Assembly (NCBI GenBank): GCA_018062815.1
Contig: JAGORM010000002.1
Coordinates: 11,211 to 75,210 of the forward strand
Direction: 5' to 3'
DNA from: Candidatus Levyibacteriota bacterium
GTDB lineage: Bacteria > Patescibacteriota > Microgenomatia > Levybacterales > GWA1-39-11
DNA length: 64,000 nucleotides
Both the position numbers and the translations under genes were made by a program. Of the stretch, positions 22,960 to 54,214 are shown piece by piece. The stretch's first letter is position 1. Every line of letters starts with the position of its first letter. Below the pieces are notes generated by a model. The model did no database searches and was not told the DNA's origin. It saw nothing but the letters and a program-made list of their open reading frames with translations.

Positions 22960-23009
22960 GCGGTCATTCTATCAAAAAAGAGACCGTTAATCAAACTATA
23001 GGATTTTTG

Positions 23010-23080
23010 CAGGGCCGCAGAGATTCGAACTCTGAAAAGCGGTTTTGGAGACCGCTGTGATACCATTTCACCACAGCCCT
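23010..23080 (-). tRNA. tRNA-Trp (CCA)
   Basis: Minus-strand reading AGGGCTG-TG-GTGA-AATGGTA-TCAC-A-GCGGT-CTCCAAA-ACCGC-TTTTC-CAGAG-TTCGAAT-CTCTG-CGGCCCT-G. Anticodon CCA; acceptor has one G-U pair; no encoded 3' CCA. Confidence 0.75.
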
Positions 23081-23250
23081 TCGATTAGCTCAGGGTAAAC
23101 CCTTCTGTAAGCTCAGGGTAAACCCTTCCGTAAAGCTTCCCTCGGAATACTCGGGACAGGCAGGGTAATCCCTAAGGTAGTCTTATTTTACCCGTTCGAT
23201 AAGCTCAGGGCAAGCCCGTACATTCAAGCTCAGGGCGGGTACAGATTAGT
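23081..23250. repeat. Cluster of 4-5 imperfect copies of AAGCTCAGGG(T/C)AA(A/G)CCC(T) arranged as a duplicated ~50-nt unit, in the divergent spacer between tRNA-Trp and the gene at 23337
   Basis: Copies at ~23086, 23110, 23160 (degenerate, GGCAGGGTAATCCCT), 23200 and 23225. Each contains a short AGGG-TAA(A)-CCCT dyad. Confidence 0.6.
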
Positions 23251-28418: not shown

Positions 28419-30248
28419 ATGAATATCAGAAATGTTGCCATTATCGCGCACGTTGACCACGGAAAAACCACATTAGTGGATTGTTTATTGCGTCAAGCAA
28501 AGACTCATTTGGGGAAAGAGTTTGATGATACATCCCATCTTATCATGGATTCAAATGAGCTGGAAAAAGAGCGCGGAATTACCATTTTTTCAAAAAATGC
28601 TTCTGTTGCATGGAAAGATAATGCCGGCGAGGAATATAAAATAAATATTATAGATACTCCAGGGCACGCCGATTTTGGCGGAGAAGTGGAGCGAGTACTT
28701 ACTATGGCTGACGGATGCCTACTTTTAATTGACGCAAAAGAAGGTCCTATGCCTCAAACACGCTTTGTGCTAAAGCAGGCGTTAAAGATGAAGCACAAGA
28801 TAATAGTGGTTATAAATAAAATTGATAAACCAGATGCAAGAATCAATCACGTTATTAATAAGACATTTGACTTATTCATAGAATTAGGTGCAGATGATGC
28901 AACAGCGGAATTCCCAATAGTATATGCATCAGCTAAAAACGGACTTGCTGGGCTTGAGCCAGTTCTTTCAGACATGAAAGATATCACCCCTGTTTTTGAC
29001 GCGATTTTAAAAGAGATCCCTGAACCTAAAGTAGATCCAGATTCACATCTTCAAATGCTTGTTACAACCATTGGGGCAGATTCCCACAAGGGAAGAATTG
29101 CGATTGGGCGCATACTAAACGGAAAGATCACTGCAAATCAGGAAGTTATGCACATTAATCGTGAAGGTGCACAAAAGAAAGTTCGTCTTACATCTTTAAT
29201 GACTTTTGAAGGGTTGGGGAAAATTGATGCCTCCTCAGCTCAGGCAGGTGATATAGTAGCTGTTACGGGTATTTTGGATGTGAACATTGGGGAAACTATA
29301 GCTGATGTTGATAATCCAATTGCGCTTCCTGTTTTAAAGATTGAAGAACCCACTGTCCGTATGACATTTGCAGTAAACGGTTCTCCATTTGCAGGTAAAG
29401 AAGGAGAATTTAAAACATCCCGTCAAATAGAGGAGAGGTTGTATAAAGAGCTTGAGACAGATATGGCGCTTCGGGTAGAGCAAAACCCAACAGGTGGGTG
29501 GATAGTATCGGGTCGTGGAGAGCTTCATTTAGCAATATTTATTGAACGACTTAGGCGTGAAGGATATGAATTTCAGGTTTCACGTCCTCAGGTAATAAAT
29601 AAGACAATTGATGGGAAAAAGATGACTCCCTACGAACAGGTTTTTATAGAAGTACCTGAAGAGACATCTGGGTCAGTTATGCAAAAAATGGGAATAAGAC
29701 ACGGACAAATGGTTGAAATGAATATAGATAACGGAATTGTTATGTATGAATTTATTATGGCTACAAAAGACCTTTTTGGATACAGGTCTGAATTTTTAAC
29801 TGACACTCGGGGATTGGGTATTATCAACACAATATTTTTAGATTACAAAGAGGACAAAGGGGACACAATCCCGCGTGAACGTGGATCATTAGTAGCCTTT
29901 GAATCAGGCCCTACAACTCATTACGGCTTAGTAAATGCACAAGATAGAGGTACTCTATTTATTGCAGCAGCAACCCCAGTTTATAAAGGGCAAGTTATAG
30001 GACAGAACTCAAGACCGGAGGACATGAGAATAAACGTGTGCAAGATTAAACAACAATCAAATATGCGCTCTAAAGGAGAGGGAGTTTCTGCTCATGCTGA
30101 TACTCCTAAGACTATGAGTTTGGAAGATGCATTGGAATATATTGATGACACAGAGCTTGTAGAGGTTACTCCTCAAAACATAAGAATTCGTAAGAAGATT
30201 TTGGACGAAAATGAAGAGCGCAGAATGCGCGCGCAAGGGAAAATATAG
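28419..30248 (+). CDS. typA: Translational GTPase BipA/TypA
   Basis: IAIIAHVDHGKTTLVD, DTPGHADFGGEVER, NKIDK; ~609 aa with the BipA-type C-terminal domain. Start at MNIRNVAII. Confidence 0.9.
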   Translation: MNIRNVAIIAHVDHGKTTLVDCLLRQAKTHLGKEFDDTSHLIMDSNELEKERGITIFSKNASVAWKDNAGEEYKINIIDTPGHADFGGEVERVLTMADGCLLLIDAKEGPMPQTRFVLKQALKMKHKIIVVINKIDKPDARINHVINKTFDLFIELGADDATAEFPIVYASAKNGLAGLEPVLSDMKDITPVFDAILKEIPEPKVDPDSHLQMLVTTIGADSHKGRIAIGRILNGKITANQEVMHINREGAQKKVRLTSLMTFEGLGKIDASSAQAGDIVAVTGILDVNIGETIADVDNPIALPVLKIEEPTVRMTFAVNGSPFAGKEGEFKTSRQIEERLYKELETDMALRVEQNPTGGWIVSGRGELHLAIFIERLRREGYEFQVSRPQVINKTIDGKKMTPYEQVFIEVPEETSGSVMQKMGIRHGQMVEMNIDNGIVMYEFIMATKDLFGYRSEFLTDTRGLGIINTIFLDYKEDKGDTIPRERGSLVAFESGPTTHYGLVNAQDRGTLFIAAATPVYKGQVIGQNSRPEDMRINVCKIKQQSNMRSKGEGVSAHADTPKTMSLEDALEYIDDTELVEVTPQNIRIRKKILDENEERRMRAQGKI

Positions 30249-30251
30249 AAT

Positions 30252-30869
30252 ATGCCACCGTTCCCTGAGTCCTTACATATAAATATTCCACAATTTCAGT
30301 TACGTTCATTTGATAGTATTACTCCAACCCAAAAAAAGGAAATAGAATTAATTTATAAAAAATCATACGGAAGTGTGGGTTTTTGGATAGGAGATTTAAC
30401 CTATGCCGAACTTACCTTGCCTACCACAACTGATGTGGCTACTGTAAGTATAGAAGACAAAATAGCAGCCTGTACAAATCTCAATGGAAAACGTGCGGGT
30501 ATTATTGCTGTAAATCCTGAATTCAGAAATAACGGCCTTGTAGCTACCATTTTTAACGGTTTGTCATCAGTGCGCCCAGGGGCTTGGATTTCTATTTCTA
30601 CAGAGGAATCTGCAAGAGGCATGCTTGCATCTGCAACCGCAAGAGACGTTCCGCTAAAACCTGTATGTAGCCAGGAAGAAATTATAAAATTATTTGAAGA
30701 TACAAAGCAAATTAGGCTACCTAAGGATTATATGTTTAAGGAAATAGAAGATGAATTTTTAACAAAAAGACTTCAGCGAAAAGGTATTAATCAGGAGACT
30801 TTTACTATAGTCTCAAAAACTAACTCTCTTCATAAGCCCTCATATTGGCAATTTGTCTTCCAAACATAG
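30252..30869 (+). CDS. Hypothetical protein, possible GNAT-like acetyltransferase
   Basis: AGIIAVNPEFRNNGLVATIF weakly resembles GNAT motif A; otherwise unassigned. Confidence 0.4.
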   Translation: MPPFPESLHINIPQFQLRSFDSITPTQKKEIELIYKKSYGSVGFWIGDLTYAELTLPTTTDVATVSIEDKIAACTNLNGKRAGIIAVNPEFRNNGLVATIFNGLSSVRPGAWISISTEESARGMLASATARDVPLKPVCSQEEIIKLFEDTKQIRLPKDYMFKEIEDEFLTKRLQRKGINQETFTIVSKTNSLHKPSYWQFVFQT

Positions 30870-30883
30870 TGCTAACTATTCCA

Positions 30884-31650
30884 ACCCCAATGAGGTCGAA
30901 CCTCAATTAGCTTGAAAAAAATTTCACATTGGAATATTCTATATGAATGCCGGCACGAAATATTGTTAAAAGTTATGTGGCTGGTGGATATTATCATATC
31001 TATAATCGTGGGGTTGAAAGAAGGGATATATTCCTTGACAAACAAGACTGTGTAGTTTTTCAAAGATATCTAAAGCTTTATTTGGCAAAGCCTTCTGAGG
31101 TTGCAAATATAGATGTTCCAAGAATTCAAATATTTCTTCAAAATAATTTACATGATGAGCTAGATCTTCTTGCTTTTTCTTTGATGCCTAATCATATACA
31201 TCTCCAAGTCCGGCAGGTTCATGAGGATTCGATTTCTAAACTTATGAAAAGATTAATAACGAGTTATGTAATGTATTTTAATAGAAAATATAAGCGTGTG
31301 GGTCCACTTTTCCAAAATAGATATAAAGCAGCTTTGATAGAAGGTGATTCATACCTACTGCATCTTTCAAGATATATTCATTTAAATCCAACAAAAATTA
31401 ATAATAATAAAATTGATTTCAATGATTTTTGTTCACTTCCATACTATCTGGGAGAAAAAGAGTCTAGTTGGCTCAAATACTCTGAAATATTGAGTTATTT
31501 TAATGGATATAAACGAAAAGATAAAGGAAAAACTTATAAGGATTTTGTAATTTCATATAGTACTCCAGCGGAAAAAATATTAGGAAATATGGTAATTGAA
31601 GATGATGTGACTTAAATTCGTGCCCAATTGAGGTTCGACCTCAGGGTCAA
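30884..31650 (+). mobile_element. REP-RAYT unit: REP-associated tyrosine transposase gene flanked by palindromic REP-like hairpins in mirror orientation
   Basis: Left flank CCCCAA-TGAGGTCGAACCTCA-ATTAG (hairpin 30891-30905). Right flank CCCAAT-TGAGGTTCGACCTCA-GGGTCAATT (hairpin 31629-31643), the exact reverse complement including the loop CGA/TCG. Together they bracket a single HuH-Y1 transposase ORF. Confidence 0.75.
30947..31615 (+). CDS. REP-associated tyrosine transposase (RAYT; IS200/IS605-like Y1 HuH transposase)
   Basis: N-terminal YHIYNRGVERRDIF, HuH motif LMPNHIHLQV, catalytic Tyr motif LSRYIHLNP; 222 aa. Confidence 0.8.
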   Translation: MPARNIVKSYVAGGYYHIYNRGVERRDIFLDKQDCVVFQRYLKLYLAKPSEVANIDVPRIQIFLQNNLHDELDLLAFSLMPNHIHLQVRQVHEDSISKLMKRLITSYVMYFNRKYKRVGPLFQNRYKAALIEGDSYLLHLSRYIHLNPTKINNNKIDFNDFCSLPYYLGEKESSWLKYSEILSYFNGYKRKDKGKTYKDFVISYSTPAEKILGNMVIEDDVT

Positions 31651-31675
31651 TTATAAAAAACAACAGAAAATAATA

Positions 31676-31771
31676 CAAAAATCCCTCATCTTTACGATGA
31701 GGGATAATTGTATTCTGTCATCCTGAAGCTGATTCAGGATCTAAAAGATTCCGAAGCGACTTCGGAATGAC
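31676..31771 (-). terminator. Triple stem-loop array plus U-tract terminating the RRM-protein gene
   Basis: Hairpins ATCCCTCATC-TTTAC-GATGAGGGAT (31681-31705), ATCCTGAA-GCTGA-TTCAGGAT (31720-31740) and ATTCCGAAG-CGA-CTTCGGAAT (31748-31768). On the minus strand the last hairpin is followed by TTTTGTATTATTTTCTGTTGTTTTTT. Confidence 0.55.
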
Positions 31772-31776
31772 AAAAA

Positions 31777-32124
31777 TTAACGGTCGTGACCGTATCCTCC
31801 ACGGTTTCCACCGCGGTCTCCGCCTCCTCTGAAGTCACGGCCACCGCCGTTTCCTCCAAAATCGCGTCTAGGTCTATCCTCTTTTGGACGTGCAACTGAA
31901 ACTACAATATTGCGTCCGCTAAAGTCTGCACCGTTAGCTTTTTCGATGGCAGCCTGTGCTGCAGCATCATCTTCCATTTCAACAAATCCAAAACCTTTAG
32001 ATCTGCCGGAGAATTTATCCATGATTATGTCAGCGGATAAAACGGTTCCGTACTGGGCAAAGTGATCCTGAAGTAATTGATTTGTTGTATTATATGGAAG
32101 GTTTCCAACATATAATTTTGTCAT
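31777..32124 (-). CDS. RRM-type RNA-binding protein with Gly/Arg-rich (RGG) C-terminal tail
   Basis: RNP-2 KLYVGNL, RNP-1 KGFGFVEM; C-terminal RPRRDFGGNGGGRDFRGGGDRGGNRGGYGHDR. Confidence 0.85.
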   Translation of the reverse strand: MTKLYVGNLPYNTTNQLLQDHFAQYGTVLSADIIMDKFSGRSKGFGFVEMEDDAAAQAAIEKANGADFSGRNIVVSVARPKEDRPRRDFGGNGGGRDFRGGGDRGGNRGGYGHDR

Positions 32125-32263
32125 AGTATTTATTCACCACCTTTCTTTATGGAGATTATATCTGTAATAAAAATTCGTGCGTACATGAAAATAAATTGCT
32201 CGTGGAAAGGAAGAATCGCGAAGATAAACTACGGTCGCCTTACACAACTTGCACTTCATATGG

Positions 32264-32292
32264 AGTATACCATATAGAGATAAAAAGGGCAA
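32264..32292 (-). promoter_or_regulatory. Candidate promoter of the RRM-protein gene (minus strand -35 TTGCCC, 17-nt spacer, -10 TATACT), implying a ~130-nt 5' leader
   Basis: Read from the reverse complement; GAAAGGTGG Shine-Dalgarno 8 nt before the ATG. Confidence 0.35.
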
Positions 32293-32309
32293 ATAAGTAG
32301 CTGTAAACA

Positions 32310-42222: not shown

Positions 42223-43116
42223 ATGTCAAGAATTAGAAAAGCTGTTATTCCCGCGGCAGGATTTGGAACGCGCTTTCTCCCCCAGACAAAAGCAATGCCC
42301 AAGGAAATGCTACCTATAGTAGATAAGCCCATCATCCAGTACATAGTTGAAGAATTGGTGAATGCGGGTATTACAGATATTATTTTAGTAACAGGTTATC
42401 ACAAGCGTACAATAGAGGATCACTTTGATGCGGCAAATCTGGATCTTATTGAAAATTTAAGAATGGGAGGGGAGAAAAAACGCCCGCTTCTTGAGGAAAT
42501 AGAAAAAATCTCCGGTATGGCAAATTTTATTTACGTACGGCAAAAAGGTCCTTATGGGAATGGAACGCCCCTTATGAATGTGCGTCATATTGTAGGGAAT
42601 GAACCATTTATCTATGCATTTTCAGATGATTTTATCCACGCAGCTCCTAAATCCCGCTTTCAACAGTTAGTTGAGCTATATGATGAGTTTGGATGTTCTA
42701 TTTTGTCATCAATTAGGGCAGAAAAAGAAGTAGACTATGATAGATATGGCTTTGCCGGCGGAGAAGAGATTCGACCAGGAGTAATTTCTGCAAAGGTAAT
42801 AATTGAAAAACCAGGGAAAGATGCTGCCCCTTCAGACTTAGCAAATGTTAGTTCAACCGTACTGTCTCCTGAAATTTTTAACTACTTAGATCGTGCATCT
42901 GAAAACTTAAAGGATGGAGATGAGCTATATTATAATGATGCCCTCAAGCTCATGATTGAAGATGGTAGAAAGGTAATAGCTGCCGAAATTGCTGGCGGAA
43001 AGTACTATGATACGGGAAATAAATTAGAATACATGAAAACAGTTGTAGAATTTGCCCTTGAGCACCCTGAGATTAATGGGAAATTCCGTGAGTTCCTAAA
43101 AGGTCTTGACCTCTAA
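42223..43116 (+). CDS. galU: UTP-glucose-1-phosphate uridylyltransferase
   Basis: KAVIPAAGFGTRFLPQTKAMPKEMLPIVDKPIIQYIVEE. Start at MSRIRKAV (track start 42157 adds 22 poorly conserved residues). Confidence 0.85.
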   Translation: MSRIRKAVIPAAGFGTRFLPQTKAMPKEMLPIVDKPIIQYIVEELVNAGITDIILVTGYHKRTIEDHFDAANLDLIENLRMGGEKKRPLLEEIEKISGMANFIYVRQKGPYGNGTPLMNVRHIVGNEPFIYAFSDDFIHAAPKSRFQQLVELYDEFGCSILSSIRAEKEVDYDRYGFAGGEEIRPGVISAKVIIEKPGKDAAPSDLANVSSTVLSPEIFNYLDRASENLKDGDELYYNDALKLMIEDGRKVIAAEIAGGKYYDTGNKLEYMKTVVEFALEHPEINGKFREFLKGLDL

Positions 43117-43183
43117 TAGTTTTAAAAACCTTAACAATTCCTTCTATATTACCTTCTGAATTATCGTGCTGTATAATAAGTTT

Positions 43184-52924: not shown

Positions 52925-54214
52925 ATGATTGATGCTCCCGAACTTCAAAAACCAACAAAATTAAAACAAAACATTCTAAGAGTACGCGAGGCAAAAGATG
53001 TGGCAAGAGTATTTGAAACTAGAATAGTTGGTCGAACAAGTAATGAATTTAGAGAGATATGTTATAGTGCTGATCTTGTCCTTGGAGGATTGGAAAACGA
53101 ATACGAGCATTTTATAACACAAAAATTCACTGAGCTTGAATCTTATCTAGATACTTCTTACGATAACTTACGCGAACATCACAATGAAGGATTCCGTAAG
53201 TTCCTACTCCAACAGTATCGTACTTATAAAAAAGAACAACCAAGCAGTGTTGATTCTTTAAAAGAAGAAGAAAGTATAAAGGATCTTGCTATCGGATATA
53301 CATTTGACTACATAAGAACACTAACACTTGGTAAGAGAATGGGGATAAGCTCAAAAAACGCACTTATGTTAGCAGAAGTTTCTCATTGGAATACTCCTAA
53401 TGTGCTTATTTCCCTTGCAAAAAAGTTTCCAGATGCAGATCCAAATGTTATTTTTAATGCTGCGGCGCACCGCCCAGCACATCCAGAAGATTTTCTAAGA
53501 GAAGTTCTTGAAGCAATCCCAAGACTTCAAGAGAAGTTTCCTGATATGGATCTCGGAATTATTAAAGGGGCTGCAACTAATTATCGATCAGCTCCCGAAC
53601 AGTATCTCCAAGGTGTGAATGATGCAATCCCAAGACTTCAAGAGAAGTTTCCTGATATAGATCTTGGAACAATTAAAAAAGCGGCTAGTGACTACTCCTC
53701 TGACCCAGAAGAATTTATCCAAGGCGTCATTACCACAGTTTCCAAATTGAGGGAAAAGTTTCCTGAAGCTGATGTTCGCTTGCTTAAAACTGCCGCAAAC
53801 ATGCACCCTCTCGATCCTGAAGGATTTGTTAATAAAGTAACTGAAAGGGTGCAGAGCCTACAAGCAAGCTTTCCAGAGATTGACTTGAGAATCATTAAAA
53901 CTGCTGCAATAAGTTACGGATCGAACCCCGAAGTATTTATCAGGAAAGTCTTGTCTGATATTCCAGACCTGCAATTAAAATTTCCTGATATCCCCCTTTC
54001 TGTTATTAAAGCTGTCGTGATTAGTCACACATCAGATTCCGAAGGTTTCATCAGAAATGTGTCTGAAAAAGCTCCTGGGTTGCAAAAAGAGTTTCCTGAT
54101 TTATCAGCAAGCGTGGTTTATCGTGCTTTAATTGGCTATCGGGATCCGCAGACCTTTCTAAGAGAAGTTCAAAATAGAATTCAAGCCTCATTAAAGCAGC
54201 GGAATCAGGCGTGA
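52925..54214 (+). CDS. Tandem-repeat protein: ~150-aa N-terminal domain plus 7 copies of a ~37-aa helical repeat (consensus xIPxLQEKFPDxDLxxIKxAAxxYxSxPExFIxxV)
   Basis: Repeat units visible in the translation. At DNA level, ATCCCAAGACTTCAAGAGAAGTTTCCTGATAT occurs twice (53515-53546 and 53625-53656). Confidence 0.65.
   Translation: MIDAPELQKPTKLKQNILRVREAKDVARVFETRIVGRTSNEFREICYSADLVLGGLENEYEHFITQKFTELESYLDTSYDNLREHHNEGFRKFLLQQYRTYKKEQPSSVDSLKEEESIKDLAIGYTFDYIRTLTLGKRMGISSKNALMLAEVSHWNTPNVLISLAKKFPDADPNVIFNAAAHRPAHPEDFLREVLEAIPRLQEKFPDMDLGIIKGAATNYRSAPEQYLQGVNDAIPRLQEKFPDIDLGTIKKAASDYSSDPEEFIQGVITTVSKLREKFPEADVRLLKTAANMHPLDPEGFVNKVTERVQSLQASFPEIDLRIIKTAAISYGSNPEVFIRKVLSDIPDLQLKFPDIPLSVIKAVVISHTSDSEGFIRNVSEKAPGLQKEFPDLSASVVYRALIGYRDPQTFLREVQNRIQASLKQRNQA

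Follow-up and report, generated by a model that had tools for sequence, protein, structure and literature searches.

Among transposases that were co-opted by their hosts, the RAYTs with their REP sequences are the best known; most descriptions concern Proteobacteria, Cyanobacteria and Bacteroidetes. In the canonical unit, the RAYT/REPtron, two or more cognate REPs reportedly flank the gene in inverted orientation; these REPs are said to carry GT[AG]G at their 5′ foot and usually to exceed 100 extragenic copies.

The sections of Quentin et al. (2018, PMC6006769) drawn on here distinguish class 2 TnpA_Y1 enzymes, with the motif Y---NP, from those of class 1 (IS200), with Y---Q, and describe the former as present in few copies per genome with low identity between them. 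Subclass 2.1 is characterised there by the motifs NHVH or NH[YF]H, W[EQ] or FQ, and YIELNP or Y[IV]HLNP, by SS in the proximal tail and by a median length of 238 aa. Those same sections give no REPs or REP-like structure for subclass 2.1, and present in-frame REPs in an enzyme’s own gene, between the HUH and Tyr motifs, as unique to subclass 2.4 (PMC6006769). Subclass 2.1 corresponds to the TIRYTs, encoded in TIRtrons (Di Nocera et al. 2013, PMC3733652), and to RAYT Group 1 (Bertels et al. 2017, PMC5581495); in the parts of the literature cited here, it is the largest RAYT-like group and is reported without a REP partner (PMC6006769, PMC5581495). The same excerpts describe terminal inverted repeats, many with GGGGWSAS, for TIRYT/Group 1 units (PMC3733652, PMC5581495), and 16-mers flanking Group 1 genes that number about 12 per replicon (Bertels et al. 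2017, PMC5581495). A CPR host goes unmentioned in these portions of the TIRYT, subclass 2.1 and Group 1 papers, and a literature search found no paper linking RAYTs to CPR/Patescibacteria.

Here, we describe an 808-bp cassette in 64 kb of DNA (64,000 nt; the whole stretch analysed, called the window) from Candidatus Levyibacteriota, a CPR lineage. The cassette is a lineage-specific example of an element of known kind, accompanied by very few additional hairpin copies. It is probably a low-copy unit resembling REPtrons and TIRtrons, whose enzyme would belong to an undescribed class-2 Y1 HUH subfamily specific to Microgenomates (CPR).

A Y1 HUH gene between two hairpins

The components of the cassette are collected in Table 1. 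There is no second ORF within it, and no tnpB.

Table 1. Features of the cassette, in coordinates of the window.
Feature	Position	Strand	Sequence or content	Basis
Whole cassette (808 bp)	30866..31673		Outer left segment, left hairpin, promoter-like site, Y1 gene, right hairpin, outer right segment	
Left hairpin	30891..30905	+	TGAGGTCGAACCTCA (TGAGGT-CGA-ACCTCA)	Sequence, fold
Promoter-like site	30912..30940	+	TTGAAA-17-TATTCT	Consensus scan, positional conservation
Y1 HUH gene (RAYT-like, TnpA_Y1 class 2)	30947..31615	+	222 aa	Profiles, fold match, conservation
Right hairpin	31629..31643	+	TGAGGTTCGACCTCA (TGAGGT-TCG-ACCTCA)	Sequence, fold

Both hairpins have a 6-bp stem and a 3-nt loop, each is preceded by CCCAA(T), and they are exact reverse complements of each other, loops included, all of which had been read correctly in a preliminary description of the locus. 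The perfect inverted repeat extends to 18 nt (30891-30908 and 31626-31643), with 717 nt separating its arms, and the extended palindrome reads GCCTAATTGAGGT-NNN-ACCTCAATTAGGC. As single-stranded DNA, the left and right hairpins fold with -4.6 and -6.3 kcal/mol, respectively (z about -2 to -2.7). Measured inwards from the cassette boundary on its side, the left hairpin is reached after 25 nt and the right one after 30 nt; 41 nt separate the left hairpin from the ATG downstream, and 13 nt the right one from the stop codon upstream. The extended 5′ arm of the right hairpin, AAATTCGTGCCCAAT (31614-31628), overlaps the stop codon. A search of the 64 kb with the 21-nt consensus AATTGAGGTNNNACCTCAATT, allowing up to three mismatches, returned these two sites only, where 0.07 were expected, and the 15-mer with up to three mismatches returned the same two. 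Since the consensus matches are far above expectation and the hairpins are conserved in relatives, which is the strongest evidence, the pair is unlikely to have arisen by chance.

The 222-aa protein carries YHIYNRG at residues 16-22, the HUH motif N82-H83-I84-H85-L86 (within NHIHLQV) and the Tyr motif R142-Y143-I144-H145-L146-N147-P148, with Y143 as catalytic tyrosine, followed by a conserved C-terminal tail of about 70 aa. These motifs, present as previously noted, had been called diagnostic of TnpA_REP: they are, more broadly, diagnostic of Y1 HUH enzymes as a whole. Over residues 62-145, the protein scores 40.4 bits with Pfam PF01797 (Y1_Tnp; cut-off 23 bits, E 3.8e-10) and thus passes; with the RAYT equivalog of NCBIfam, REP_Tyr_transpos (NF047646), it reaches 40.8 bits and stays below the cut-off of 80. 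A PDB sequence search with the family profile gave ISDra2 TnpA alone (E 0.13), without detecting E. coli TnpA_REP, and a fold search was therefore used. With an AF2 model of the protein (pLDDT 85.9), the best PDB match was E. coli TnpA_REP (4er8_A; E 1.2e-7, TM 0.62 on target), at a sequence identity of only 15%, followed by the IS608 and ISDra2 TnpA structures; in all, 30 Y1 transposase chains were matched at E <= 2.3e-4. The ORF is, thus, a Y1 HUH enzyme of the RAYT-like class.

Its Tyr motif, YIHLNP, is the class-2 form (Y---NP). Compared with the motifs of the published table, rather than with the authors’ profiles, FQ (in LFQNRYKA) and YIHLNP match subclass 2.1, while the HUH motif NHIH is unlisted. 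The tail motif is CS in the window protein and SS in most relatives (FSSYPYYLG), and its length of 222 aa compares with the subclass 2.1 median of 238 aa. In 25 relatives, 56 columns are invariant, with H83-I84-H85 and Y143 among them, and dN/dS between the window gene and that of L110, its closest relative, is 0.075. As read from its sequence, the Y1 gene is intact and under strong purifying selection, with all catalytic residues kept.

Cognate hairpins in relatives and at solo sites

In the seven Levybacteria-clade units, 13 of the 14 hairpins have an identical 12-nt stem, the left stem stands 41-42 nt before the ATG in all seven, and the right stem lies 13-33 nt after the stop codon in relatives. 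Between the Y1 genes of this clade, pS is 0.66-0.86; that is, synonymous sites are saturated. The stem and its distances are kept under such saturation, and the hairpins belong to the Y1 gene.

The 3-nt loop varies between elements and agrees between the two ends of a single element. Of 73 distinct relatives in a census, 34 share one perfect hairpin between their two ends, with agreeing loops in 32 of these; in the control, mismatched locus pairs agree in 58 of 5256 cases. The loops (left/right) are GCC/GCC in L003, GTA/GTA in L008, and GGC/GGC in both L112 and L004, and in L111 the stem itself is changed, to TGAGGA, at both ends. Ends are direct in 18 elements of the census, inverted in seven and accompanied by doublets in another seven. 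The window combines CGA on the left with TCG on the right, while its closest relative, L110 (83% identical), has CGA/CGA on the same strand, so the right loop of the window is best taken as a derived flip. The mirror-image arrangement emphasised in the preliminary description, thus, holds for the window, with its 18-nt inverted repeat, and fails as a family design: it would go back to an inversion of the right-hand loop inside its palindromic stem rather than to an inverted repeat by design, and is not the family rule. Direct end-to-end matches of 23-31 nt occur in L045, L048, L059, L087, L056 and L057, and REPIN-like doublets were found at both ends and elsewhere in L011, L012, L014, L023 and L029. 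Furthermore, eight relatives carry a third cognate hairpin in frame inside the ORF, inserted either upstream of the HUH motif, at about aa 62, or downstream of the Tyr motif, at aa 151-158; the window gene has none.

The outer 25-30 nt between cassette boundary and hairpin are not conserved between units and, for that reason, the indel boundaries need not coincide with enzymatic cleavage sites. An IS608-style guide/cleavage pairing at the indel boundaries was rejected on the same ground, no cleavage site being proposable. No GT[AG]G was found within 90 nt of either hairpin, nor GGGGWSAS within 30800-30950 or 31600-31720, on both strands in either case.

The promoter-like site follows the left hairpin directly, and its -10 element ends 6 nt before the ATG. 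The consensus scan is not significant by itself (five sites versus 4.9 expected); the block TTAGCTTG[A/C]AA is, nevertheless, invariant in position in L003, L008, L004, L110, L112 and L111 despite the saturated synonymous sites. A leaderless or near-leaderless mRNA from this candidate promoter is suggested.

With one palindrome abutting a promoter-like site, the other in the 3′ UTR, and a free 3-nt centre resembling that of a dimer operator, the hairpins could be taken for ordinary regulatory or terminator sequences, or for operators of a dimeric regulator, unrelated to catalysis by an ORF that would then be a decaying relic. We find this hardly credible. The gene is under strong purifying selection with all its catalytic residues present; the three central nucleotides change in concert at both ends, which an operator would not require; hairpins appear and vanish together with the gene, and solo copies sit away from any gene start. 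There is no T-run after either hairpin, the real terminators lie outside them at 31681-31768, and an Rfam scan of 30200-32300 gave sub-threshold chance matches only. An origin of the hairpin as a tRNA T-arm fragment was considered and rejected, there being no tRNA at either window site.

The preliminary description counted a single hairpin pair in the 64 kb and supposed a low-copy family. The mismatch-tolerant scans bear out the count, the pair at the gene being all that the window contains; at a distance of 535 nt past the window end, the same genome has a third copy. This intergenic solo (L121, 8756-8770), situated near dprA, has the loop CGC and is part of a 53-nt palindrome that folds into a two-tier hairpin (-16.3 kcal/mol, z -6.2). 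The source genome, thus, has three hairpin copies and one Y1 gene in about 73 kb (the 64-kb window and 9 kb beyond). Solos also occur in relatives (L003 at 1637, L004 at 667, L112 at 1702, and in L029, L034, L017, L061 and L070), and the arm AAAATTCGTGCCTAATTGAGGT of the right hairpin is also an arm of the L003 solo palindrome. A low-copy dispersed hairpin family exists, as the solos in this genome and in relatives attest; with a single solo in the 9 kb past the window and none within its 64 kb, the extrapolated number of copies is in the tens rather than the hundreds. Scanning the contig collection, which does not include the source genome, with TGAGGTCGAACCTCAAT gave 21 scattered matches, against an estimated 70 or so expected by chance. 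Several chance genome matches to the hairpin pattern look T-arm-like on a reading of their flanks.

Taken literally, the preliminary description implies a canonical domesticated RAYT with a large population of REPs or REPINs to serve, like those of E. coli or Pseudomonas. The closest solved structure being E. coli TnpA_REP, the single-copy gene between inverted hairpins in the window, the existence of solos and the REPIN-like doublets of the five relatives named above all speak for such a RAYT, yet we regard it as very improbable. The NCBIfam equivalog score is about half its cut-off, GT[AG]G is absent from the hairpin foot, and the extrapolated copy number is in the tens; the motifs fit subclass 2.1, which is without REPs in the sections cited of Quentin et al. 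(PMC6006769), and inverted orientation is the minority state in the family. Of the proposed complete REP-RAYT unit, the cognate hairpins and the RAYT-like enzyme are upheld; canonical REP features are missing, with no GT[AG]G foot and no hundreds of copies seen in the DNA covered.

Presence, absence and inheritance of the cassette

We have compared the window by BLASTN with L118 (GCA_964419005.1), the nearest sister genome, which is colinear over 22 kb with flanks of 82-85% nucleotide identity and a BipA identical at 98.7% of amino acids. Homology ends at 30865 and restarts at 31674: in place of the 808 bp, L118 has 12 nt (gtctttttgacc), with no Y1 gene and no hairpin at this empty site. L119 and L120 share a junction identical to that of L118, and the cassette is also absent from L114, L115 and L116/117. 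The empty sites are clean, with no leftover hairpin. The comparison of flanks in sister genomes that had been proposed earlier, thus, revealed a presence/absence polymorphism, and with it a discrete cassette of 808 bp, which the preliminary description had not considered.

The cassette is present in the window, L003 and L110 and absent in L118, L114/L115 and L116. To explain this distribution, one must assume that it was lost three times or, alternatively, that it was gained independently two to three times at one and the same intergenic position; both a resident unit that was lost and a mobile one are compatible with this. In L003 and L110, the orthologues adjoin the RRM gene, as in the window, and Y1 divergence (78-83%) is like that of neighbouring genes. 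Judged by such comparisons, residence is single-copy and long-term. The cassette is found in three different left contexts beside the same RRM terminator. The gene upstream, described previously as GNAT-like, finds no support as such: its 205-aa ORF has no Pfam or NCBIfam match, and its single-sequence AF2 model (pLDDT 35.6) is unusable.

Paralogues within one genome are 65-71% identical (68% for the L003/L008 pair of GCA_964406795.1). Recent transposition was rejected: among 96 sampled genes, there are no near-identical ones in different contexts, and all pairs with at least 88% nucleotide identity share flanks, bearing in mind that metagenome assemblies can collapse repeats. A search of viral contigs returned no relatives, and plasmid and phage records held relatives of at most 36% identity, with no sign of a vector. 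At the site corresponding to paralogue 2, the window has the ArgRS and NTP-transferase genes adjacent, with a 70-nt spacer and no remnant. This site was discarded as a second empty-site test, L008 and L112 differing there by a multi-gene indel of about 4 kb with uninformative boundaries.

Clean empty sites and varied left contexts recall an autonomous IS200/IS605-style insertion sequence, in which the whole cassette would move by single-strand “peel and paste” with its hairpins on one strand, the solos being debris left by earlier copies. Subterminal hairpins, 25 and 30 nt inside the indel boundaries, and the same loop with asymmetric flanks on the same strand in most relatives (18 direct versus seven inverted; compare LE/RE of IS608) would agree with this. 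Nonetheless, we consider such an element unlikely: the enzyme is of the Y---NP class, not Y---Q, and has 222 aa with a conserved tail instead of about 150 aa; tnpB is lacking; a single copy occurs in about 73 kb, mid-contig, and divergence at orthologous positions is host-like. The 96 sampled genes contain no near-identical pair in different contexts, and paralogues of one genome show only the identities given above. Moreover, the flipped right loop of the window would place the cognate hairpin form on the opposite strand.

A probable low-copy unit compared with known systems

In the preferred reading, that of a low-copy REPtron/TIRtron-like unit, the enzyme would bind the hairpin extruded from single-stranded DNA, such as the lagging-strand template, by analogy with TnpA_REP and IS608 TnpA, and would cleave and rejoin nearby with an HUH-bound metal and Tyr143. 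Occasional copying of the palindrome to new intergenic sites could give rise to the solos, and the concerted loop changes would follow if the enzyme keeps both flanking copies in agreement with one another and with the specificity of the protein. The enzyme may also excise or insert the whole cassette. As the left hairpin directly adjoins the -35 box of the gene’s own putative promoter, binding there probably also autoregulates expression.

A more tentative possibility is that the Microgenomates family represents a still-living intermediate stage that links insertion sequences of the IS200 type to domesticated RAYTs. A class-2 enzyme and whole cassette would still be excising and inserting through subterminal hairpins, most of them located on one strand; as a specificity code, the 3-nt loop would co-evolve with each paralogue, and the enzyme would seed solo palindromes as well as the in-frame copies inside its own ORF. 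If this were true, the origin of REP/RAYT from insertion sequences would become directly testable, and in minimal CPR genomes.

An enzyme of an ultra-small CPR genome that is 2.1-like by its motifs has an unmistakable cognate hairpin, as seen from the concerted loop changes at both ends, the rare solos and the clean present/absent cassette. The system is small and simple: its hairpin has 15 nt, only the 3 nt of the loop are variable, and several paralogues combine one stem with loops of their own. It could serve for tests of hairpin recognition by Y1 enzymes and of the beginnings of REP families. In annotation, such CPR “transposase” genes are not to be taken as active insertion sequences.

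With IS200, IS608 and ISDra2 (subclass 1.1), the window shares the Y1 HUH fold, and with IS200/IS605 elements the hairpins a few tens of nt inside the ends and the clean empty sites; same-strand hairpins at both ends are shared with most relatives of the cassette. The differences lie in the Y---Q motif, the length of about 150 aa and the frequent tnpB of IS200/IS605, against Y---NP, 222 aa and no tnpB here, and in their several near-identical copies in varied contexts, of which the window family has none, residing long-term at orthologous sites. The RAYTs of subclass 2.4, as far as described in the cited sections of PMC6006769, resemble the eight relatives with an in-frame hairpin inside their own ORF, but have other subclass motifs and another insertion place; the window gene lacks such a hairpin.

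E. coli TnpA_REP and its REPtron (subclass 2.2; PDB 4ER8) provide the best structural match and share Y---NP, a single-copy gene between inverted cognate hairpins, and hairpin copies elsewhere in the genome. On the other hand, identity is 15%, the window protein falls below the NCBIfam equivalog cut-off and has an extra tail of about 70 aa, and the E. coli REPs occur in hundreds of copies with a GTAG guide tetranucleotide, in contrast with hairpins without GTAG and in few copies at most.

The TIRYT/TIRtron, insofar as the excerpts cited describe it, differs in three respects: the flanks of the window are short hairpins with a 6-bp stem and 3-nt loop that lack GGGGWSAS, most relatives of the cassette have direct rather than inverted ends, and the HUH motif is NHIH instead of the NHVH or NH[YF]H of subclass 2.1. 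It is like the window, within the same excerpts, in its class-2 Y1 protein, longer than the E. coli RAYT and with a conserved tail, in FQ, Y[IV]HLNP and the SS-type tail motif (CS in the window), in its low copy number, and in inverted or partly self-complementary flanking repeats that form small families.

The Y1 gene, its hairpins and its protein

In the window, a single ORF, the Y1 gene, lies between two hairpins which are exact reverse complements of each other and are each preceded by CCCAA(T) (see table). These features and the YHIYNRG, HUH and Tyr motifs of the 222-aa product are as given in the preliminary description, as is the occurrence of one hairpin pair in 64 kb: a 21-nt consensus search allowing three mismatches returned 2 sites, i.e., both hairpins (0.07 expected), and a 15-mer search the same two sites only. 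No hairpin copy beyond the gene's two and no other abundant repeat family was found in the 64-kb window.

Main features of the Y1 unit, its relatives and their surroundings (window coordinates unless a contig or locus handle is given)
Feature	Location	Remarks
Y1 unit (cassette)	30866-31673	808 bp
Left hairpin	30891-30905	TGAGGTCGAACCTCA; 6-bp stem, 3-nt loop; -4.6 kcal/mol as single-stranded DNA
Right hairpin	31629-31643	TGAGGTTCGACCTCA; 6-bp stem, 3-nt loop; -6.3 kcal/mol as single-stranded DNA
Perfect inverted repeat	30891-30908 / 31626-31643	18 nt
Y1 gene	30947-31615 (+)	YHIYNRG (16-22), NHIHL (82-86), RYIHLNP (142-148)
Terminator-like hairpins, two or three stacked	31681-31768	between cassette and RRM gene
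Terminator hairpin	31681-31705	bidirectional
Terminator hairpin	31748-31768	minus strand
bipA-RRM spacer	30249-31776	
Spacer content	window, L118, L116	205/221/214-aa ORF
Spacer content	L003	235-aa reverse gene
Spacer content	L114	803-aa gene
Spacer content	L116	441-aa gene
Spacer content	L115	nothing
Spacer content	L110	Y1 unit alone
Empty site of second paralogue	43114-43183	70-nt spacer
Solo hairpin	L121 8756-8770	GCCTAATTGAGGT-CGC-ACCTCAATTGGC
Similar solos	L003 1637; L004 667; L112 1702	intergenic
In-frame copies	L033 6186; L045 1743; L057 1924 / L061 6452; L070 6185	
In-frame copies	L079 6182; L080 4619; L034 6158 and 6472; L083 6466	
Doublets on both flanks of Y1 gene	L011, L012, L014, L013, L021, L023, L024, L029	
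Solo doublets	L029 2861/2878 and 4833/4850; L034 3347/3366	kilobases from gene
Tandem half-stems	L110 1252-1310	ACCTCAATTA x3 (attaacctcaacctcaattaacctcaattagcctc)
Second distant Y1 paralogue	L004 14683-15345 (-)	36% identity
Saccharibacteria Y1 homologue	L091 5589-6088	38% identity over 152 aa
Second Saccharibacteria copy of TGAGGTTCGACCTCA	L094 446-460	
Promoter-like sites	L045 1515-1558; L080 4395-4434	also L059, L087, L056
23S_rRNA_IVP genes	L004 9100-9456; 15588-15947	Avd-like four-helix bundle
Y1 unit near reverse transcriptase	L111 7253-8693	
23-nt repeat cluster	23077-23240	CCCTTCGATTAGCTCAGGGTAAA; three or four copies with GGGTAAACCC-type mini-palindromes; beside tRNA-Trp (23009-23080, -)
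111-nt tandem repeats	53482-53925	three copies, 61-72% identity

An identical protein is encoded in the Candidatus Levybacteria MAG (Microgenomates, CPR) GCA_017992235.1, of which the window sequence spans two contigs (JAGOPA010000003 and JAGOPA010000008). Of the profile matches anticipated for it, Pfam Y1_Tnp was passed (40.4 bits; threshold 23), but the curated NCBIfam RAYT equivalog was not reached (40.8 bits; threshold 80). A PDB sequence search with the family profile gave ISDra2 TnpA as sole match (E 0.13), while a structure predicted by AlphaFold from 25 relatives (pLDDT 85.9) matched best E. coli TnpA_REP with its bound REP hairpin (4er8_A, E 1.2e-7), followed by the IS608, ISDra2 and IS200 transposases (E ~1e-5). 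The family is large (3846 matches, the few named ones in Levy-, Davies- and Shapirobacteria) and conserved over its full length, with 56 invariant columns amongst 25 relatives, C-terminal tail included. The gene is under strong purifying selection (dN/dS 0.075 versus the 83% identical relative L110; in other gene pairs, synonymous sites are saturated, pS 0.76-0.86).

Quentin et al. 2018 (PMC6006769) place proteins whose Tyr motif is Y---NP in class 2 (RAYT-like), IS200 having Y---Q; subclass 2.1 is characterised by FQ, Y[IV]HLNP, a conserved SS-motif tail and >200 aa, equals Group 1 of Bertels (PMC5581495) and mostly overlaps Di Nocera's TIRYTs (PMC3733652). Going by this motif table rather than the authors' profiles, the Y1 protein would fit best in subclass 2.1, albeit imperfectly: its HUH motif is NHIH, not NHVH/NH[YF]H, and its tail has CS, not SS.

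Concerted change and orientation of the two ends

We fetched six more units of the Levybacteria clade (protein identity 65-83%). In all seven, the window's included, TGAGG(T/A)-NNN-ACCTCA occurs 41-42 nt 5' of the ATG and again 13-33 nt 3' of the stop (overlapping it in unit L111). The 12-nt stems are identical in 13 of the 14 hairpins despite saturated synonymous divergence; L111 has one stem change, TGAGGA, at both ends. The 3-nt loop varies between units and matches within each: left/right loops are CGA/TCG in the window, CGA/CGA in L110, GCC/GCC in L003, GTA/GTA in L008, and GGC/GGC in both L112 and L004. The paralogues L003 and L008, 68% identical and from one genome (GCA_964406795.1), have a common stem and different loops.

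In a wider sample of 80 metagenomic loci with Y1 relatives at 41-61% identity, the stem sequence is clade-dependent (AAGGT, AAGGA, AGGGT, others) and the end-matching rule persists. The same perfect 5+3+5 hairpin was present at both ends in 34 out of 73 distinct genes, with matching loops in 32 of them, versus 58 out of 5256 mismatched locus pairs taken as control; many of the remaining genes have imperfect or larger-loop hairpins of 18-31 nt common to both ends. If the palindromes were operators or terminators, such concerted change at both ends would not be predicted. Occurring at two sites ~740 nt apart, it argues for a functional link between the Y1 protein and both hairpins.

The second, distant paralogue in contig L004 has another hairpin, TAACGATCCCGTATCGTTA, at both ends, which fits the rule of an own palindrome for each paralogue. 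In the Saccharibacteria MAG CAYJTN01, a distant Y1 homologue (L091) has the exact TGAGGTTCGACCTCA 39 nt 5' of its start and another contig (L094) carries a second copy; stem and loop therefore occur outside Microgenomates as well.

Since the stem is palindromic, orientation can be read solely from the loop and from the outer flanks. The mirror image noted in the preliminary description is real in the window but is not the design of the family: in L110, the closest relative (83%), both loops read CGA on one strand, direct ends are also found in L003, L008, L112 and L004, and the census yielded 18 genes with direct ends only, seven with inverted ends only and seven with doublets of both orientations. 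Amongst the inverted units, true three-base flips occur only in the window, L026 and L032. Because the closest relative and most census units have direct ends, the right-hand loop of the window is a derived flip. Both ends are incomplete versions of a single longer palindrome, approximately GCCTAATTGAGGT-NNN-ACCTCAATTAGGC, with the 3' arm retained on the left and the 5' arm on the right, and this produces the 18-nt inverted repeat.

In L110, tandem half-stems follow 3' of the right hairpin, and a partial inside-out hairpin (CCTCAGTTTGAGG) lies 5' of the left one. Some relatives carry REPIN-like hairpin doublets spaced by 17-19 nt, the two loops of a doublet being reverse complements of each other.

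Copies away from the gene and turnover of the unit

A solo copy exists ~535 nt past the window end in L121, the continuing contig (JAGOPA010000008.1), where it is intergenic, 3' of dprA, with no Y1 gene near. Its loop is one base off CGA; outer arms (GCCCAAA/TTTGGGC) extend it to a two-tier hairpin of 53 nt (-16.3 kcal/mol, z -6.2), and its sequence recurs in two Logan assemblies (L122, L123). Similar intergenic solos also occur in L029, L034, L017, L061 and L070; in most solos of relatives, the loop is the resident one or differs from it by a single base. The L003 solo has arms, AAAATTCGTGCCTAATTGAGGT, identical to the 5' arm of the right end, which overlaps the Y1 stop codon. By estimate, a specified 12-base pattern is expected ~0.0006 times in 9 kb, so the solos are real family members. 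With three copies in ~73 kb, the family is REP-like but sparse, in line with the low-copy REP family surmised earlier.

Eight distinct relatives (41-48% identity) harbour a third copy of their own hairpin in frame inside the Y1 ORF, at ~aa 53-62 (e.g., encoding TLQGGSFKGVP) or aa 151-158; the window's gene has none. The loop is that of the flanks in most and its reverse complement in L034 and L083, and some copies match several flank bases too (L045: ccttgcAAGGAGGCTCCTTtaaagg). In-frame REP insertion is reported as unique to subclass 2.4 by Quentin et al. 2018 (PMC6006769).

Sister genomes were fetched with BipA as anchor. In the nearest, GCA_964419005.1 (L118), and two further assemblies (L119, L120), BipA identity is 98.7%, and the flanks, colinear for 22 kb, share 82-85% of their nucleotides. 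In GCA_964419005.1, 12 nt separate the counterpart of the window's upstream 205-aa ORF from the RRM terminator, with neither Y1 gene nor hairpin at the bipA-RRM site. Comparison of flanks thus shows presence/absence polymorphism of the cassette: its 808 bp versus gtctttttgacc in the sister. These boundaries make the hairpins subterminal (25 and 30 nt inside); one boundary immediately precedes the A-run belonging to the first terminator-like hairpin, and the stacked hairpins are kept in L003, L115 and L118, which show compensatory changes.

Gene and hairpins are also absent from L114 and L115 (BipA 94-95%) and L116/117 (91.5%). L003 (88.5%) and L110, which are more distant, have the unit at the corresponding position beside the RRM gene, the left neighbours being of three different kinds. 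On BipA distances, explaining this pattern requires loss in three cases or gain in two to three. Between L003 and the window, Y1 (78%) has diverged about as much as the neighbouring genes: BipA (88.5%), L11 (90%), RRM (74%) and L1 (66%). A second paralogue shows the same pattern at its own syntenic site in L008 and L112 (71%), which is empty in the window, ArgRS and NTP-transferase genes being adjacent. Near-identical Y1 genes in different contexts were not found amongst 96 sampled genes, nor any family member in viral contigs; plasmid and phage records gave distant relatives only (<=36% identity). The unit behaves as a resident kept in single copy over the long term, sometimes lost or gained whole, and is RAYT-like rather than IS-like in this.

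The bipA-RRM spacer is a gene-turnover hotspot in close Levybacteria. Between the ArgRS and NTP-transferase genes, the companions of the second paralogue are small ORFs together with either an HTH_38 (IS30-like) gene (L008) or a 287-aa ORF (L112). A 23S_rRNA_IVP gene lies 5' of both Y1 paralogues in L004, and the L111 unit is ~1.3 kb from a reverse transcriptase and bAvd pair, likely a diversity-generating retroelement; these neighbourhoods may be coincidence.

Possible mechanism and comparison with known systems

By analogy with TnpA_REP and IS608 TnpA, the Y1 enzyme would recognise the hairpin once it is extruded in single-stranded DNA and carry out cleavage and rejoining close by via HUH and Tyr143, which would account for the solos, keep the two flanking copies matched and possibly underlie cassette gain or loss. 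Hairpin binding could also regulate the gene, since a promoter-like invariant block, TTAGCTTG[A/C]AA, is directly 3' of the left hairpin; it contains a -35-like TTGAAA, followed after 17 nt by a -10-like TATTCT ending 6 nt before the ATG. GT[AG]G and GGGGWSAS motifs were absent from the window hairpins and flanks. As the outer 25-30 nt of the cassette are not conserved between units, we propose no cleavage site. In more distant relatives, the left hairpin appears to lie within a promoter-like site (read by eye), as 17-18-nt spacer between TTGCAA and TAAGAT or TAATAT; the sequence recurs at the right end, where it might drive outward transcription.

Subclass 2.1 is reported without REP-like partners by Quentin et al. 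2018 (PMC6006769), and TIRYTs with other kinds of inverted repeats by Di Nocera et al. 2013 (PMC3733652). Our literature search found no paper linking RAYTs with CPR. The family merits a dedicated study for its predominance of direct ends, its co-varying loops, the hairpin copies in frame within the gene and the doublets at the ends. The REP-RAYT identity initially assigned holds in part: the Y1 unit differs from IS200 in Tyr motif, in size and in not being multicopy, and from a canonical RAYT in missing the NCBIfam threshold, the GTAG foot and high copy number, but it works like a REPtron or TIRtron.
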